The position numbers and the translations under genes are program-made. Of a stretch of DNA of 64,000 nt, positions 11,209 to 42,226 are shown one piece after another. The notes beneath the pieces were generated by a model that was given only the letters and a program-made list of their open reading frames with translations, ran no database searches and was not told where the DNA came from. Positions within the stretch are counted from its first letter, which is position 1. Every line of letters starts with the position of its first letter. Location: UHGV virus genome UHGV-0373904. One strand, written 5' to 3'. The stretch is from a virus.

Positions 11209-12341
11209 TATGCCTCCCCTGCTGGGTTAACTGTAACTGTTGCTGCATTAGATGTTACAGAGCCACCTGCACCAGTAACTACACAGGTGTAGCTTCCTGA
11301 ATCAGCAGCGGTTGCACCTTCTTTAGTGTAAGTTGCAGCGGTTGCATCAAGGATATCTTCCTCACCTTTCTTCCACTGGTAACCTGTTGCACCTGTTGCC
11401 ACAACATTCAGTGTTAAGGTCTCACCTTCATTGATTTCTTGATTGGTTGGCTGTTGAGTGATTACCGGAAGTGCATTCACAGTAACTGTTGCTGCGTTAG
11501 ACGTTACAGAGCCACCTGCACCTGTTACAACGCAAGTGTATGAACCTGCATCTGCTGGCAGAGCACCAGACTTGCTATAGGTATCATTTGTAGCTGAAGG
11601 AATGTCAGAGCCATCTTTCTTCCACTGGTAACCTGTTGCACCTGTTGCAGTAACTGCTAAGTTGATGTTTCCACCTTCATTAATAGTCTGGTTAGAAGGT
11701 TGCTTGGTAATCACAGGTAGTGCGTTCACAGTCACTGTTGCTGCATCTGAGGTAACACTTGTTCCACCTTCTCCAGATACAACACAAGTGTATGAACCAG
11801 CGTCAGAAGGTGCTACTGACTGTTTTGTGTAAGTTGCAGAATTGGCACTAGGGATGTCCTCACCATCCTTTTTCCACTGATATCCAGTGGCGTTAGTTGC
11901 TAGAATGGTTAGAGTAAGTGTGCCACCCTCATTAACTGTTTGACCTGTTGGCTGCTGAGTAATTGCTGGTGGCTTGATAGCATCCTTCAACTTAGCATTC
12001 AACATTGAGAACGGCTTAACTCTTGCCAACCATTCACAGTAAATTGTGTCAACATCTTTACCATTGATGATTGCATACTGCAAATCCATGAAGAAATCAG
12101 CAGTTCTCATCTGTGCACCAACACTGTAAAGCAATTCATCACTAAATGGAACTTTGTAGTCTGGTTTGTAGTCAAACTTCTCAACTTCTGCGATATCAGC
12201 TTCAGGCCAATATGAACTATAGGTAAGTGGTAAAATAGCTTCTTGATATGTTCTAAAATCATATCTCTTACCAGCCTTTACATTTGCAATGAAGCCCTTT
12301 ACAAATTCTTTGAAGTCTGGGTAAGTCTTTGCTTTAATCAT
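11208..12341 (-). CDS. Protein with three tandem Ig-like repeats
   Basis: C-terminal half has three ~90-aa repeats (..QPTxQTxNEGxxLTLxxxATGATGYQWKKDGxDIPSAxxxTYxxxxAxxxDxGSYTCVVxGxGGxVTSxAATVTVN). N-terminal ~120 aa is paralogous to the product of 12338..12709. Confidence 0.7.
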   Translation of the reverse strand: MIKAKTYPDFKEFVKGFIANVKAGKRYDFRTYQEAILPLTYSSYWPEADIAEVEKFDYKPDYKVPFSDELLYSVGAQMRTADFFMDLQYAIINGKDVDTIYCEWLARVKPFSMLNAKLKDAIKPPAITQQPTGQTVNEGGTLTLTILATNATGYQWKKDGEDIPSANSATYTKQSVAPSDAGSYTCVVSGEGGTSVTSDAATVTVNALPVITKQPSNQTINEGGNINLAVTATGATGYQWKKDGSDIPSATNDTYSKSGALPADAGSYTCVVTGAGGSVTSNAATVTVNALPVITQQPTNQEINEGETLTLNVVATGATGYQWKKGEEDILDATAATYTKEGATAADSGSYTCVVTGAGGSVTSNAATVTVNPAGEA

Positions 12342-14418: not shown

Positions 14419-15834
14419 ATGAGCGAGTTATTTAAACATGCGCACCTTCATGCAGGTCGAACTGAAAATGGTGCTGTAAACCATACTTCATCAATGTCTG
14501 CTCTTGTAGATTTTTACAAAGCTGCTGGTTCAAGCCGTAGCAATGTAGAAATCTTACCAGACTTGTTCTACAAAGCTTTGCGTGAGGATGTTGATGTTGC
14601 AGTTCGTATTTTGCTTCACATGCGAGATGTACGAGAAGGTATGGGTGAGCGTAAAGCCTTCAGAACTGTTTTACTTCAAGCAATCGAAGACAAAGTTTTA
14701 GAGCCTACACAGGTTCTTCGTATTATGGATAAGATTGCAGAACTTGGTCGTTTTGATGACTTCAAAATCTTCGTAGGTACTCGTTTTGAGACAGATGCCT
14801 TTAAGCATTTAGAAGCAGCATTACTAGACCATGAGACAGCAGGTTTAGCAGCCAAGTGGTTACCACGAGTAAAACCACGACACAAACAGTTTGTAAAACG
14901 TTTCTGCAAGTTTGCTAACTTGAGTGAGAAAGAGTACCGCACACTGCTATCTGCACTGTCTGATACGGTTGAGCAAAAAATCTCTGCTAATGAGTTTGGT
15001 AAGATTGATTACAGCAAGATTCCTTCACTTGCTGCTGCACGTTACCAAAAACTGTTTAACCGTAAAGATGGAGAGCGCTACAAAGCTTACATCGAGTCCT
15101 TATCAAAGGGTGAGACTAAGATTAATGCTGGTGCTGTTTACCCATACGATGTGATTAAATCTGTTAAGTATGGTAATGCAGATGTTGCTAATGAGCAGTG
15201 GAAAGCACTACCAAACTGGATGGCAGAGGGTGAAAACATTCTATGTATGTCTGATGTTTCAAGTTCAATGTCTTGGGTGAATTTTGGTTCAATTACTGCT
15301 CTTGATATTGGTGTTTCACTTGCATTGTATGTAGCAGAACGTAATACAGGTTGCTTTAAGAATGAGTTGATGGTTTATTCAACAAACCCTCACTTCATTG
15401 AACTGAGTGGTGATTTACGAAACCGTCATCGTCAGGTAATGCGTCATGTTGAATACGGTTCAACTAACTTACAAGCAGCTTTTGACCGCATTCTTGAGAC
15501 AGGTAAGAGAAACAACTTGACTCAGAAAGATATGCCAAGTAAGCTTATCATCTTCTCTGATATGGAGTTCAATCAGGTTGACGGTGCAAATGGTCGTACA
15601 AACTTTGAAGCAATTCGTAGTAAGTACAAAAAAGCTGGATACGAAATGCCACAACTGGTATTCTGGTACTTAGCAAACCGTAGTGGTACTTGCGAAGTAT
15701 CTGTTAAGGATAACGGTGTAGCAATGGTATCAGGGTTCTCTCCAGCCACTTTAAAAGCTCTTCTTGGTGGTGAGAAGTTTGACCCAATCAGCGTAATGCT
15801 CAAAGCAGTAATGATTGACCGTTACATCTGGTAA
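14419..15834 (+). CDS. vWA-like (MIDAS motif) domain protein, 471 aa; TROVE/Ro60-like RNA-binding protein is a hypothesis
   Basis: C-terminal half has DxSxS in ILCMSDVSSSMS followed by hydrophobic strands (LIIFSDMEF); N-terminal ~260 aa looks helical. Sits directly upstream of the tRNA array. Confidence 0.55.
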   Translation: MSELFKHAHLHAGRTENGAVNHTSSMSALVDFYKAAGSSRSNVEILPDLFYKALREDVDVAVRILLHMRDVREGMGERKAFRTVLLQAIEDKVLEPTQVLRIMDKIAELGRFDDFKIFVGTRFETDAFKHLEAALLDHETAGLAAKWLPRVKPRHKQFVKRFCKFANLSEKEYRTLLSALSDTVEQKISANEFGKIDYSKIPSLAAARYQKLFNRKDGERYKAYIESLSKGETKINAGAVYPYDVIKSVKYGNADVANEQWKALPNWMAEGENILCMSDVSSSMSWVNFGSITALDIGVSLALYVAERNTGCFKNELMVYSTNPHFIELSGDLRNRHRQVMRHVEYGSTNLQAAFDRILETGKRNNLTQKDMPSKLIIFSDMEFNQVDGANGRTNFEAIRSKYKKAGYEMPQLVFWYLANRSGTCEVSVKDNGVAMVSGFSPATLKALLGGEKFDPISVMLKAVMIDRYIW

Positions 15835-15851
15835 AAAGTTTTAAAAAGGGT

Positions 15852-15880
15852 ATTGACAATGTGTTTAATACCCTTTAATA
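15852..15880 (+). promoter_or_regulatory. Sigma70-type promoter (TTGACA-N17-TAATAT) overlapping a 9-bp perfect inverted repeat
   Basis: aaaaagggtaTTGACAatgtgtttaataccctTTAATAT; inverted repeat aagggtatt / aataccctt spans -35 to the spacer. Confidence 0.65.
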
Positions 15881-15943
15881 TGTTCTACATAGAAACGAAA
15901 TGAGAGCTTTTCTAAGATACTGAAAAATATTTTAAAAAAGTTC

Positions 15944-15972
15944 TTGACAACCACTAAAAAATAATGTTAAAG
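15944..15972 (+). promoter_or_regulatory. Candidate promoter upstream of first tRNA (A-tract, TTGACA) with inverted repeat aaccact/agtggtt
   Basis: aaaaaagttcTTGACAaccactaaaaaataatgttaaagtggtt; -10 ambiguous. Confidence 0.4.
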
Positions 15973-15999
15973 TGGTTACATAGAGTTTGAAAAGTTTAT

Positions 16000-16162: not shown

Positions 16163-16252
16163 TTTTGACAGAAGACCAATTACAGCAAACTTAATCTTAT
16201 TCATCTGAAGGTAAATCGGACAAAGAAGAGATTTGGTCTGGTCATTAAGAAT
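16163..16252 (+). repeat. tRNA-array spacer element copy 1 (CAGAAGACCAAT...ATTTGGTCTGG hairpin-bounded)
   Basis: 5' cagaagaccaattacagcaa and 3' tttggtctgg can pair (agaccaa/ttggtct). Confidence 0.55.
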
Positions 16253-16330: not shown

Positions 16331-16403
16331 TTTTGCAGAAGACCGTATTCAGCAACAAAATACTTTTGCGGATAAAAGAAAAAACACGGTCTGGCAATGT
16401 ATT
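16331..16403 (+). repeat. tRNA-array spacer element copy 2 (CAGAAGACCGT...ACGGTCTGG)
   Basis: Same flanking motif with compensatory change (agaccg/cggtct). Confidence 0.55.
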
Positions 16404-16660: not shown

Positions 16661-16720
16661 ATTTTGAGAGGGCTATTTAGCCCCTCCCTTAAAGGGTTCT
16701 TACGAGTATCCTTTAAAGGA

Positions 16721-16800
16721 GCAGAAGACCAAATACAGCAAGAACGTATGAAAATTTCAAGCCAATTTAATTTTGAAAAATTTAAAACTTGGTCTGGCTC
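16721..16800 (+). repeat. tRNA-array spacer element copy 3 (CAGAAGACCAAATACAGCAA...TTGGTCTGG)
   Basis: Same motif; preceded by terminator-like hairpin agggc-tattta-gccct and a TTAAAGG..CCTTTAA palindrome (16661-16716). Confidence 0.55.
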
Positions 16801-16940
16801 AACAAATTTACAGAAGACCGTTTACAGCAAAACTTAAACAATCTATTTCTCGGTAAAGAAAAGGCGAAGGTTCGATTCCTTCACTCGGCAGATGTCGAGT
16901 TGGTGTAATGGTAGCACTTAAGATGATAAACAACGGTCTG
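16801..16940 (+). repeat. tRNA-array spacer element copy 4 (CAGAAGACCGTTTACAGCAA...AACGGTCTGG) enclosing tRNA-like fragments
   Basis: 8-bp closing stem agaccgtt/aacggtct; the interior holds a T-arm plus 3' acceptor-like segment next to a 5' acceptor plus D-arm-like segment. Confidence 0.55.
16863..16920 (+). pseudogene. tRNA-like fragments (T-arm gaagg-ttcgatt-ccttc plus actcggc, then gtcgagt plus D-arm-like tggtgtaatggtagcac)
   Basis: A canonical T-arm with 3' acceptor-like strand is followed 4 nt later by a complementary 5' acceptor-like strand and a D-arm; no complete cloverleaf could be folded in normal order. Confidence 0.4.
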
Positions 16941-17090
16941 GTAATTATCTTTGTAGATAAGTTATTAAGCTTACCTGTGAGTATGCGACCACAAAGGGTG
17001 AAAGGGTAAATTCTAGATTTAAACCCAAAAAGGCACATCGCTACAGACCTTAAGCAAGTCTGGGTAGCTTATCTGCAAAGATAATTTAAT

Positions 17091-17322: not shown

Positions 17323-17398
17323 GCTGGTATAGTTAAGAAGGTTATAACACTCCCCTGATAAGGGAACATCGGTGGTTCGATTCCACCTACCAGCACCA
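17323..17398 (+). tRNA. tRNA-Ile (anticodon GAT)
   Basis: Acceptor gctggta/taccagc, anticodon loop ctGATaa, T-arm ggtgg-ttcgatt-ccacc, CCA. Confidence 0.75.
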
Positions 17399-17413
17399 AT
17401 TTCAATAAAGTTG

Positions 17414-17442
17414 TTGACATTGAGATGTGACTACTTTATAGT
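17414..17442 (+). promoter_or_regulatory. Sigma70-type promoter inside the tRNA array (TTGACA-N17-TATAGT)
   Basis: aaagttgTTGACAttgagatgtgactacttTATAGT. Confidence 0.65.
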
Positions 17443-17445
17443 AAC

Positions 17446-17733
17446 TAAAACACTTCATAATATGTATAATTCAAACACCAATACATGAGCGTTAGACGTA
17501 ACACAATGTGGGGAAATTTGTTGTACATATTCTGAATAGTTTTCGTTGCGTAGCGTCTATTTTGAAAATTTAAAATAAATGCAAACGACAATGTTTTTCT
17601 GGCAGTAGCTTGATAGGCTAAACACCAGTGAGGTCTTCCAATCCCTCATCAAAGAATTTGGCGTACTCGCCCACGGTATGATTAATAAGGTGGGCATCTT
17701 TAAGGGCTTTCTAAGAGAGTCTTTAAAGATAAT
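17446..17733 (+). other. ORF-poor 290-nt segment downstream of a promoter inside the tRNA array; candidate non-coding RNA locus
   Basis: No tRNA fold found, no ORF of 60 aa or more; lies between promoter 17414-17442 and tRNA-Arg. Confidence 0.35.
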
Positions 17734-17952: not shown

Positions 17953-18035
17953 ATGGGACGATGTTAAGACTCTAAGGCATGAGCAACGGCCTCCAAAACC
18001 GTTTCAAAGGGGTTCAACTCCTCCGTCCCATGCCA
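17953..18035 (+). tRNA. Non-canonical tRNA-like gene (possible anticodon CCA, Trp) with expanded D region and enlarged anticodon loop
   Basis: Perfect 7-bp acceptor atgggac/gtcccat plus GCCA end and T-arm agggg-ttcaact-cctcc; anticodon stem aacgg/ccgtt encloses a 9-nt loop cctccaaaa; D region is about 6 nt too long to fold canonically. Confidence 0.4.
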
Positions 18036-18048
18036 AAGTCTTATTAGG

Positions 18049-18136: not shown

Positions 18137-18289
18137 CCTAATAAGATTTACTCCGTCCATGCTTGTTCGCATTGTCGGTTTATCCCTCGTGTATTGTCGT
18201 ACACTGTCAAAGCACCTAGTAGGTGTCACGGAGAAGAGATAATATCAAGCTCTCCAAAGGTTCTAGTCACCGGATTAAACAAGACTATG

Positions 18290-18312
18290 CAAAGACCTAT
18301 TTAGGTCTTTTT
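18290..18312 (+). terminator. Rho-independent terminator inside the tRNA array
   Basis: agaccta-ttt-aggtct perfect hairpin followed by ttttt. Confidence 0.6.
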
Positions 18313-18391
18313 AGAGGGCTTCTAAGGTTATTACAGCTTGTTGTGGAACCTTGTTGCTTAGGTTCTTAGAAGTTCTCTAAAAAGATTTAAT

Positions 18392-20189: not shown

Positions 20190-20220
20190 CTTCTAAGGAT
20201 TCTTACGAGAGTCCTTAAAT

Positions 20221-41038: not shown

Positions 41039-42226
41039 ATGGCGGTAGGTGAAATTCAAATTAGTGCCTTGCCTCAAGCAGCCTTACCAATTGACCTTAG
41101 TGATATCTTCCATCTTAAGCAGGGTATTGAGGATAAGAGATGTACTCTTGAGCAATTACTTGCTCCACACTCAAGCCTAAGAAATAACCCTCATGGTGTG
41201 ACTAAAACACAAATTGGTTTAGATAACGTTATTAATGCTCTTCAGTTAGTCGCTGCAAATAACTTATCAGATATTGTTAATGTAGCTGAGGCAAGAGCAA
41301 ATCTACAGATTATGTCTTCAGAAGAGGTTAATAACCTTGTTCAGCAACATATCAAGGACAAGAGTAACCCACACAATACAACTAAGGCACAGGTTGGTTT
41401 AAGTAATGTTCAGAACTGGACAACATCTAACCTGTATAATGAAGATGCAGATAAGTATGCTACAGCAAGAGCAGTAAATAACTTGTACAAGGCTGTTCAG
41501 GCTTCTTATCCAGTAGGTACTATCCATCTTTCTATGAACTCTGCAAACCCTTCTACATACTTAATTTGTGGAGGTACTTGGGAGTTGGTTTCAAAAGGTA
41601 GGGCATTGGTTGGCTATGACTCTGATACAAGGCCAGCAGGTTCTGTATTTGGTGCTTCGACTGTCACTTTGTCAGTTAATAACATGCCTCAACACTCACA
41701 CTCTGTATCTCTTAGTGGTGGTGGTCACACTCATAATGCAACTGTTTCAATTTCAGCTTTTGACTATGGGACTAAGACTACCAACTCTTTTGACTATGGA
41801 ACAAAGACTACTAACACAACTGGTAACCACAATCACGTTGGTAGTGGGTCAACAAGTGCTGCTGGTGCTCACAACCACAGATTGACCTATGAAGCGGGTG
41901 GTGGCCTATCGGAGAGACCTGCAATGGTTTGGTCTACAAGAAATGACCAATCATGGTACTCAGCAGATGCTGTCTGTGAAGTCGCTGGTTCGCACACCCA
42001 CTCTTTTAGCGTTACCACTAACACAACTGGTAACCATAATCATACGGTGGGTATTGGTGCTCATAGCCATACAGTTGGTATTGGTTCACACACACACAAT
42101 GGTACTGTGGCAGTTTCTTCTTCTGAGCATACACATAGTGGAAACACTAATAGTGTTGGTGGTGGACAAGCTTTCAACATTGAGCAGCCATCATTCGTGC
42201 TGTATGTATGGCAGAGAACAGCTTAA
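41039..42226 (+). CDS. Tail fibre protein with His-rich GxHxH repeats
   Basis: N-terminal repeats NPHGVTKTQIGLDNV / NPHNTTKAQVGLSNV; C-terminal HSHSVSLSGGGHTHN, GNHNHVGSG, GAHNH, GSHTHSF, GNHNHTVGIGAHSHTVGIGSHTHNG; ends ..VLYVWQRTA. Confidence 0.7.
   Translation: MAVGEIQISALPQAALPIDLSDIFHLKQGIEDKRCTLEQLLAPHSSLRNNPHGVTKTQIGLDNVINALQLVAANNLSDIVNVAEARANLQIMSSEEVNNLVQQHIKDKSNPHNTTKAQVGLSNVQNWTTSNLYNEDADKYATARAVNNLYKAVQASYPVGTIHLSMNSANPSTYLICGGTWELVSKGRALVGYDSDTRPAGSVFGASTVTLSVNNMPQHSHSVSLSGGGHTHNATVSISAFDYGTKTTNSFDYGTKTTNTTGNHNHVGSGSTSAAGAHNHRLTYEAGGGLSERPAMVWSTRNDQSWYSADAVCEVAGSHTHSFSVTTNTTGNHNHTVGIGAHSHTVGIGSHTHNGTVAVSSSEHTHSGNTNSVGGGQAFNIEQPSFVLYVWQRTA

Follow-up and report, generated by a model that had tools for sequence, protein, structure and literature searches.

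The DNA analyzed here, hereafter the window, is a stretch of 64,000 nucleotides (nt) from the virus genome UHGV-0373904 and belongs to a FelixO1-like phage (Felixounavirus). ARAGORN called 26 tRNA genes in it, all on the plus strand between 16000 and 21303, and a gene for a 471-amino-acid (aa) Ro60-like protein (14419-15834) precedes this array. The element under study is a set of tRNA arms in permuted order (16866-16917), which sits in the 430-nt gap between tRNA-Asp (end 16660) and tRNA-Lys (start 17091) and belongs to the fourth of four related units that also lie between the gene and tRNA-Lys; the 601 bases around it match 252 phage records, mostly at 95–99% identity. All features of the window given below are on the plus strand unless stated otherwise.

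The module begins with a T arm, GAAGG-TTCGATT-CCTTC (16866-16882; stem strands 16866-16870 and 16878-16882, loop 16871-16877), and this is followed with zero gap, as at positions 65/66 of a tRNA, by a capped acceptor-like hairpin, ACTCGGC-AGAT-GTCGAGT (16883-16900), whose two strands (16883-16889 and 16894-16900) form 7 base pairs (bp) including one G-U around the 4-nt loop AGAT (16890-16893). A U8-like TG (16901-16902) and a D arm, GTGT-AATGGTA-GCAC (16903-16906, 16907-16913, and 16914-16917), complete it (whole segment 16901-16917), and the D loop AATGGTA holds the GG that contacts the T loop in a tRNA. Upstream of the T arm, the hairpin TTTCT-CGGTAA-AGAAA (16846-16861; 5-bp stem, 6-nt loop) takes the position of an anticodon arm and is the counterpart of the "V" stem-loop of the Y RNA YrlA; its loop reads CGGUAA in the window, CCGGUAA in two close relatives, and is a canonical 7-nt loop, CUGGUAA, in phages Silverhawkium and KMM2 (Mooglevirus) and PC79-13 (Suspvirus).

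The first-pass annotation of this DNA had described the T arm, the two complementary heptamers 4 nt apart, and the D arm exactly as they can be read here, and had found that no cloverleaf folds in normal order. The latter also holds: ARAGORN calls no tRNA at 16866-16917, the hairpin loop CGGUAA has 6 nt where a canonical 5'-to-3' cloverleaf has a 7-nt anticodon loop, and the Rfam tRNA model recovers only a partial 3' portion of unit 4 (15 bits), in which it aligns the 16846-16861 hairpin as the anticodon arm. Given the order anticodon-like hairpin, short variable loop, T arm, capped acceptor, D arm, the interior of unit 4 is a tRNA cloverleaf whose opening lies between positions 26 and 27 and whose acceptor end is closed. 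The two halves do pair as an acceptor stem in a circularly permuted order, as had been suggested, but neither joined RNA ends nor circularization is needed, since the 4-nt loop caps the stem and the open ends enter a closing stem. When the 64 kb were scanned on both strands for a T arm with a hairpin of 6 bp or more right next to it and a D arm after that (hereafter T-AS-D), 16866-16917 was the sole site, and none of the 26 true tRNAs triggered the descriptor.

The surrounding repeated units, which had also been recognized correctly, share CAGAAGACC..TWCAGCAA...GGTCTGG and follow one design: a 4-bp lower stem, an AGA/G internal loop, a 7-bp upper stem AGACCNN/NNGGTCT, one nucleotide, and the octamer T[A/T]CAGCAA. 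Unit 1 (16166-16244) has the lower stem TGAC/GTCA, the loop AGA/G, the upper stem AGACCAA/TTGGTCT, and the motif TTACAGCAA; unit 2 (16333-16397) has TTGC/GCAA, AGACCGT/ACGGTCT, and ATTCAGCAA; and unit 3 (16719-16800) has GAGC/GCTC, AGACCAA/TTGGTCT, and ATACAGCAA. These three are short, with 38-55 variable nt inside, and unit 4 (16808-16944) is the long form, 137 nt, that holds the tRNA-like module between its lower stem (TTAC 16808-16811/GTAA 16941-16944), AGA/G loop, and upper stem (AGACCGT 16815-16821/ACGGTCT 16933-16939). Its single-stranded motif TACAGCAA (16823-16830) lies immediately downstream of the closing stem's 5' strand, and the octamer is invariant in our alignments A3 and A5. The lower stems differ from unit to unit yet remain complementary, and the NN of the upper stem covaries (GT/AC or AA/TT). 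The minimum-free-energy fold of unit 4 contains both closing stems, the 16846-16861 hairpin, the T arm, the capped acceptor, and the D arm, and independent predictions gave the same architecture for the versions of Mordin and Silverhawkium as well as for unrelated units of the distant loci L084 (two) and L066. No claim is made for a further pairing in the unit 4 fold, the "anticodon-stem-like" junction CUUAA/UUAAG, which Mooglevirus does not preserve. Since the segment CAGAAGACC/GGUCUGG behaves as a covarying helix, its reading as something like a hairpin ribozyme was rejected.

To follow the element among the Ounavirinae, the Asp-to-Lys spacer was aligned for FelixO1, five metagenomic Felixounavirus contigs, five Mooglevirus phages (Sf14, Silverhawkium, KMM2, Mordin, and Michonne), and the Suspvirus PC79-13. 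Across these three genera the T and D arms are invariant, and the acceptor hairpin occurs in three fully complementary versions (ACTCGGC/GTCGAGT, ACACGTT/GGCGTGT, and ACCCTTC/GAAGGGT). In an alignment of 10 sequences, all 27 pairs of unit 4 are kept (270/270 cells paired, against 34–48% in slid controls), and three pairs of the acceptor hairpin change on both sides in a compensatory manner. An ordinary intact tRNA, which the first-pass annotation had envisaged at this position in related phages, does not appear there: the relatives hold the same permuted module or a deletion.

Public records annotate hypothetical proteins on the minus strand over units 3-4, namely bas63_0137 and bas63_0138 in phage Bas63 (L090, 2681-2955) and ORF94 in FelixO1 (L001, 1707-1937). 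On another reading, the region encodes a minus-strand small protein (ORF94, window 16808-17038, or the Bas63 genes 0137 and 0138); such open reading frames (ORFs) are annotated in some records, and one of 76 aa does exist. However, the ORF is split differently in Bas63, relatives carry indels of 1, 2, and 4 nt within it, and the substitutions preserve RNA pairs instead, which makes a coding role extremely improbable; bas63_0137, bas63_0138, and ORF94 are probably spurious calls over RNA genes.

A search through IMG/VR gave at least 589 loci with genes for relatives of the Ro60-like protein, and the 75 distant ones, at 39–47% protein identity, were studied. The T-AS-D descriptor found 11 modules on the strand of the gene and none on the other, each with a different acceptor hairpin sequence. 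A covariance model built from Ounavirinae alone (R2) matched distant phages, including loci L036 (44.9 bits), L084 (36.5 bits), and L066 (34.3 bits). The distant modules were aligned under guidance of the model, in place of a MAFFT alignment (A4) that was structurally inconsistent; in the twelve so aligned, paired cells make up 97.5% and compensatory pairs 14 of 16, figures that describe an alignment fitted to the model. All 7 acceptor pairs covary in it, and five of the twelve members do not have the acceptor hairpin. A model made from these twelve, with no Ounavirinae sequence (R3), recovered the module of the window (16861-16919) at 60.4 bits (E 4e-11), and its next best matches in the window, at 30.9 bits or less, were tandem-tRNA junctions with the hairpin deleted in the alignment. 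The 148-kb contig L091, which was in no seed, carries the gene, two short units, and two T-AS-D modules (54.9 and 48.8 bits).

These data bear on the explanation preferred by the first-pass annotation, a functionless recombination scar or decayed tRNA left by two truncated, once-tandem tRNA genes. Recombination between T loops does occur in this region: in the Salmonella phage SP116 (L008, 762-797), the T loop of unit 4 is fused to that of tRNA-Lys(UUU), with loss of the acceptor hairpin and D arm and of the tRNA's 5' part; junctions of tandem tRNAs also match the module model weakly. But real junctions reach at most 31 bits where the module reaches 60, the hairpin changes in a compensatory way across genera, and the module recurs in distant phages with unrelated sequences, always inside a stem-plus-motif unit and on the strand of the gene. 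A scar is therefore very unlikely and already largely refuted. T-loop recombination deletes the module rather than having created it, and the 16866-16917 element is a conserved RNA structure, not a scar.

The short units were also sought in the 75 distant loci, where tandem copies of the octamer T[A/T]CAGCAA stand right beside the gene, on its strand. A stem of at least 7 bp encloses 89 of 147 plus-strand motifs, compared with 16 of 93 on the minus strand and with 17% after shuffling of the downstream sequence; the 7-bp criterion was adopted because one of 6 bp was too lax, with 47% of shuffles passing. The consensus of the distant units is (U)AG-N5-N-UWCAGCAA ... N5-CUG, and they number 0.45-0.47 per kb in the 1 kb flanking the gene on each side, compared with 0.02 per kb inside it and 0.03 per kb further out, a drop of about 15-fold beyond the flanks. 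A covariance model of 27 short units (R1) gave 73 matches (E ≤0.1; 945 kb, both strands), all on the strand of the gene and spread over 49 of the 75 loci. Its only matches in the window were units 1-3 (45.8, 43.7, and 40.1 bits, all three being in its seed) and the 5' part of unit 4. Because the seeds were picked for their stems, the R1 seed alignment has inflated pair statistics; this bias does not affect the enrichment by strand, shuffling, and density.

Alternatively, the units might be processing or spacer elements of the tRNA operon, such as guides for RNase E, RNase III, or RNase P, unrelated to the protein. This would agree with their place between tRNAs in the Ounavirinae and with units 1 and 2, which begin directly after a tRNA 3' end. 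However, the same units flank the gene in loci where Rfam finds no tRNA at all and are therefore tied to the gene and not to tRNA arrays; together with the fall in density beyond 1 kb, this leaves such a role with little likelihood.

The gene in question ends 330 nt ahead of unit 1 and corresponds by synteny to bas63_0130, directly upstream of the tRNA array. Pfam assigns its product to DUF2828 and DUF7788, and PHROG 850, to which it belongs, is described as "RNA-binding protein". An AlphaFold model (36 homologs; mean predicted local distance difference test score of 88) shows a helical-repeat ring together with a von Willebrand factor A (vWA) domain whose metal ion-dependent adhesion site DxSxS (D279/S281/S283) is invariant in the homologs, the two features that define Ro60. 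The top 10 Foldseek matches in PDB are all Ro60/TROVE structures over the full length (E 5e-8 to 4e-6, TM scores 0.5-0.64), from Xenopus, human, Deinococcus (Rsr), and the Thermus phage phiLo, and beyond these only isolated vWA domains were matched. A phmmer search of the protein against PDB chains returned nothing relevant, and the likeness to Ro60 comes from fold comparison only.

We propose, with a probability of about three in four, that unit 4 is the tRNA-mimic domain of a YrlA-like Y RNA family that partners the divergent Ro60-like protein encoded upstream. In this mechanism, unit 4 (~137 nt) would be transcribed with the phage tRNA array, and its ends would pair in the bipartite closing stem. 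This stem and the UWCAGCAA module, common to the four units, would form the binding site for the ring protein, which would grip it by analogy with YrlA and Ro60. Because unit 4 is predicted to fold as an inside-out tRNA with both arms, the T-loop/D-loop elbow could form, while the open ends at tRNA positions 26/27 would enter the protein-binding stem. The tRNA shape might then be shown to a tRNA-recognizing factor, such as RNase P, the CCA-adding enzyme, an exoribonuclease, or a host defense nuclease, and the particle may act as an adaptor or decoy during infection, a proposal that fits because the orthologous gp130 of phage Bas63 reportedly counters the Ppl defense system.

Several observations weigh against this proposal. 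The unit was found by the descriptors used in just 42-49 of the 75 loci. Alignment A5 was selected for stems and the R3 seeds were found by a model derived from the Ounavirinae clade, which leaves the A5 and R3 statistics short of full independence. The module does not retain the Levitt 15-48 pair. SP116 and phage ESCO49 (L009, 580-773), the latter without tRNA-Asp, unit 3, and most of unit 4, are natural variants that lack the module, so that it is accessory and dispensable for growth. Pfam gives no TROVE call for the protein, whose identity to Ro60 structures is 10–16%; the Rfam YrlA model (RF02553; threshold 69 bits) has no match in the window at E up to 10; and the stem module carries UWCAGCAA without the GNCGAAN0-1G of YrlA.

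A genuine permuted or split tRNA is the other way to read the module: RNase P would cut the loop 5' of GTCGAGT, the 3' end would be trimmed and receive CCA, and a two-piece aminoacylated molecule would serve translation or a tmRNA-like rescue. All four arms can be drawn, with a 7-bp acceptor stem, and the relatives named above have the canonical loop CU-GGU-AA. An N-CCA directly follows the acceptor 3' strand, in the loop, in several distant phages (GCCA in Mordin and L066, ACCA and CCCA in L084, and ACCA in L052), which suggests that some members could be opened by RNase P into a CCA-ended two-piece form, by analogy with the YrlA of Mycobacterium smegmatis, which is cut by RNase P and given CCA. 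Yet the "anticodon" loop of the window has 6 nt and no CCA is encoded in this copy; the loop drifts among relatives (GGU, UAU, and a 5-nt loop in Mordin); the acceptor hairpin is absent from some family members; the alanine identity pair of tmRNA, G3:U70, is lacking, and no tmRNA was called by ARAGORN. Moreover, the long extensions at 26/27 would clash with decoding, and the array already encodes a tRNA-Thr. A chargeable tRNA is thus unlikely, and of the permuted tRNA raised by the first-pass annotation the topology stands, whereas its implication does not.

With the Y RNA-like reading, what looked like an odd sequence becomes a concrete proposal for an RNA-protein system, and a Ro60-like phage protein that defeats Ppl gains candidate RNA partners with defined motifs, located in what had passed for spacers or spurious small ORFs.

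Between the Ro60-like gene and the first tRNA, two tandem sigma-70-like promoters (15853-15973) can be read from the sequence as TTGACA-17-TAATAT and TTGACA-18-TAAAGT. Two copies of a 27-nt A/T-rich block that ends in TTGACAA lie 91 nt apart (15833-15859 and 15924-15950), and each supplies the -35 element of one promoter-like site; these blocks are family D12 of our repeat analysis. The two promoters probably drive the array of tRNAs and small RNAs.

A possible fifth, minimal unit, CTAC-AGAC-CTTAAGCAA-GTCT-GG-GTAG (17041-17067), was noticed in the Asp-Lys spacer alignment; its loop resembles UWCAGCAA, and Mooglevirus has a compensatory version, AAACC-CTTTAGCAA-GGTTT. R1 did not detect it in the window search, and we tentatively consider it a degenerate unit. 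Another motif-plus-stem match, at 41452-41563, lies among coding-looking sequence, has no R1 match, and was set aside as a chance occurrence.

Other features of the array and of the distant loci were recorded alongside. At 17955-18036, a tRNA-like sequence with a CCA (Trp) anticodon, not called by ARAGORN, combines an acceptor stem of 6 bp with an aberrantly long D region, an anticodon loop of 9 nt (CCUCCAAAA), a T arm, and a 3' CCA shifted by two nucleotides; Rfam gives it a weak tRNA-Sec match (23 bits), and Trp is the sole amino acid absent from the set of 26 tRNAs. At 16667-16716, a GC-rich hairpin, GAGAGGGCT-ATTT-AGCCCCTC, is followed by the hairpin AAGGGT-TCTTACGAGTA-TCCTT, which is repeated at 20195-20219 with 84% identity, and related GGTTCTTAG... 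blocks lie at 18361 and 21026; these hairpins may represent another recurrent small structured element of the tRNA array. Two stretches of the array, 17399-17733 and 18139-18391 (~335 and ~253 nt), hold neither a tRNA nor a convincing ORF. The former overlaps weak Rfam matches to tmRNA (13.5 bits) and tmRNA_permuted (24.5 bits), the second of which spans 17340-17613 and starts within the T arm of tRNA-Ile; both are probably driven by that arm. In the distant locus L052 (5734-5833, plus strand), one unit has an insert in normal order, with a D arm, an anticodon arm (loop CUUGUAA), and a T arm, in which the closing stem of the unit family replaces the acceptor stem; tRNA mimics of either topology are thus accepted by the same scaffold. 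In locus L026, the DUF2828 gene is followed, a few kb downstream, by a group I intron (11696-11922, plus strand) that Rfam scores above threshold at 71.5 bits.

Among known systems, permuted tRNA genes (in Cyanidioschyzon and others) and two-piece tmRNA have in common with unit 4 a T arm and 3' acceptor strand that precede the 5' acceptor strand and D arm, with a short linker at the acceptor stem between them. Cutting at the acceptor end turns both into functional, chargeable molecules, and permuted tRNAs are first circularized at a bulge-helix-bulge by eukaryotic or archaeal enzymes. In unit 4, the termini form no Cyanidioschyzon-type bulge-helix-bulge but pair in a stem of 7 bp accompanied by an AGA/G internal loop and a conserved motif, and the anticodon loop is degenerate. 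As for two-piece tmRNA, the first acceptor pairs are G1-C72, U2-G71, and C3-G70, and the window copy has neither CCA nor a tag frame.

The protein has a described ortholog in Bas63 gp130, which was found to be Ro60-like by structure comparison and to counter Ppl (PhageMaP preprint, 10.1101/2024.10.10.617714), and which occupies the same position upstream of a tRNA array. The authors of that preprint speculated only that some annotated tRNA genes might be Y RNAs, whereas the candidate RNAs proposed here lie in the inter-tRNA spacers, which in Bas63 are annotated as the minus-strand hypothetical proteins 0137 and 0138. In the literature on DUF2828, DUF7788, or Ro60/Y RNA in Felixounavirus, no description of these RNAs was found.

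The closest RNA is YrlA, which lies beside a Ro60 gene and has a V hairpin, a T arm, an acceptor-like stem-loop, and a D arm inside an end-paired stem (Chen et al. 2014, PMC4201824; RF02553); it is bound by Ro60 and modified by TruB and DusA, and phage Y RNAs with a canonical Ro60 are known. Unit 4 shows the same T-AS-D order with an upstream V hairpin, and the likeness extends to paired RNA ends around a tRNA-mimic interior, a 7-bp acceptor stem, CCA in some members, and several Y RNAs per locus, with a shorter YrlB-like form beside the tRNA-like one. Unlike YrlA, the phage units sit inside a tRNA array. They lie 330-1100 nt downstream of a gene whose product matches Ro60 in its modeled fold but belongs to DUF2828/DUF7788 in Pfam. 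The sole GNCGAAG string of the unit (16863-16869) falls at the junction of variable loop and T stem and is not conserved in FelixO1 or L013. At permissive thresholds, Rfam gave no YrlA, ribozyme, or other family for unit 4, and the YrlA model scored significantly, yet below its threshold, on the units of relatives in L026 and L084 (29-39 bits; best 39.2 and 38.9, E ~4e-5). Because GNCGAA is replaced by UWCAGCAA, the Rfam threshold is not reached, and the protein is not TROVE at the sequence level, the family, judged on these grounds, appears to work like YrlA but to stand outside it as a divergent form. This would extend tRNA-mimicking Y RNAs to a second, sequence-divergent Ro60 clade with a different protein-binding signature, common in large phages.

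Finally, one Rfam family alone gives repeated matches to the short units, namely the Dictyostelium Class I RNA (RF01414). Its scores in the window are 13-22 bits (22 for unit 2 and 19.7 for unit 1), below the gathering score of 41.5, and it provides, at 25-29 bits, the four best matches among 4227 Rfam families in five tRNA-free loci, each to the first unit after the gene (L023 7410-7470, L047 7689-7748, L033 7399-7456, and L028 1535-1592). The two kinds of RNA share a 5' G, an end-joining stem of ~6 bp, (CC)UUACAGCAA immediately following the stem's 5' strand, an A/U-rich interior that varies, a 3' end ...C-UG, and, for the short forms, a length of 45-65 nt. The window units hold 8-9 of the 11 nt of the Class I motif CCUUACAGCAA (UUACAGCAA, AUUCAGCAA), and several distant phage units have the full 11-nt CCTTACAGCAA. 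DdR-21 (GTTGACCTTACAGCAA...GTCAACTG) is an example of a Class I RNA with the 5' G, 6-bp stem, motif, terminal CUG, and size in common. Under a sequence profile derived from the phage units, 13 of the 14 Class I RNAs outranked 1400 shuffles, but their scores were low. DUF2828 proteins also exist in eukaryotes.

Class I RNAs differ in having their own polymerase promoter (DUSE), an RNA recognition motif protein as their known direct binder (PMC7919456), and no known link to a Ro60-like protein, and the long phage forms carry tRNA-like or other inserts. They are reported to be unique to dictyostelids, and their function has been unknown since 2004; four proteins were pulled down with DdR-21, one of which, DDB_G0281243, is of unknown function and is not mentioned in the supplements of PMC7919456. 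It is conceivable, though we rate it well below an even chance, that stem-plus-UWCAGCAA RNAs and DUF2828/DUF7788 Ro60-like proteins make up an unrecognized ribonucleoprotein family widespread in phages (at least 589 IMG/VR loci), whose eukaryotic counterpart would be the Dictyostelium Class I RNAs as Y-RNA-like partners of a Ro60 paralog. If the resemblance did reflect a common protein partner, it would offer the first mechanistic handle on this abundant class of eukaryotic RNA.

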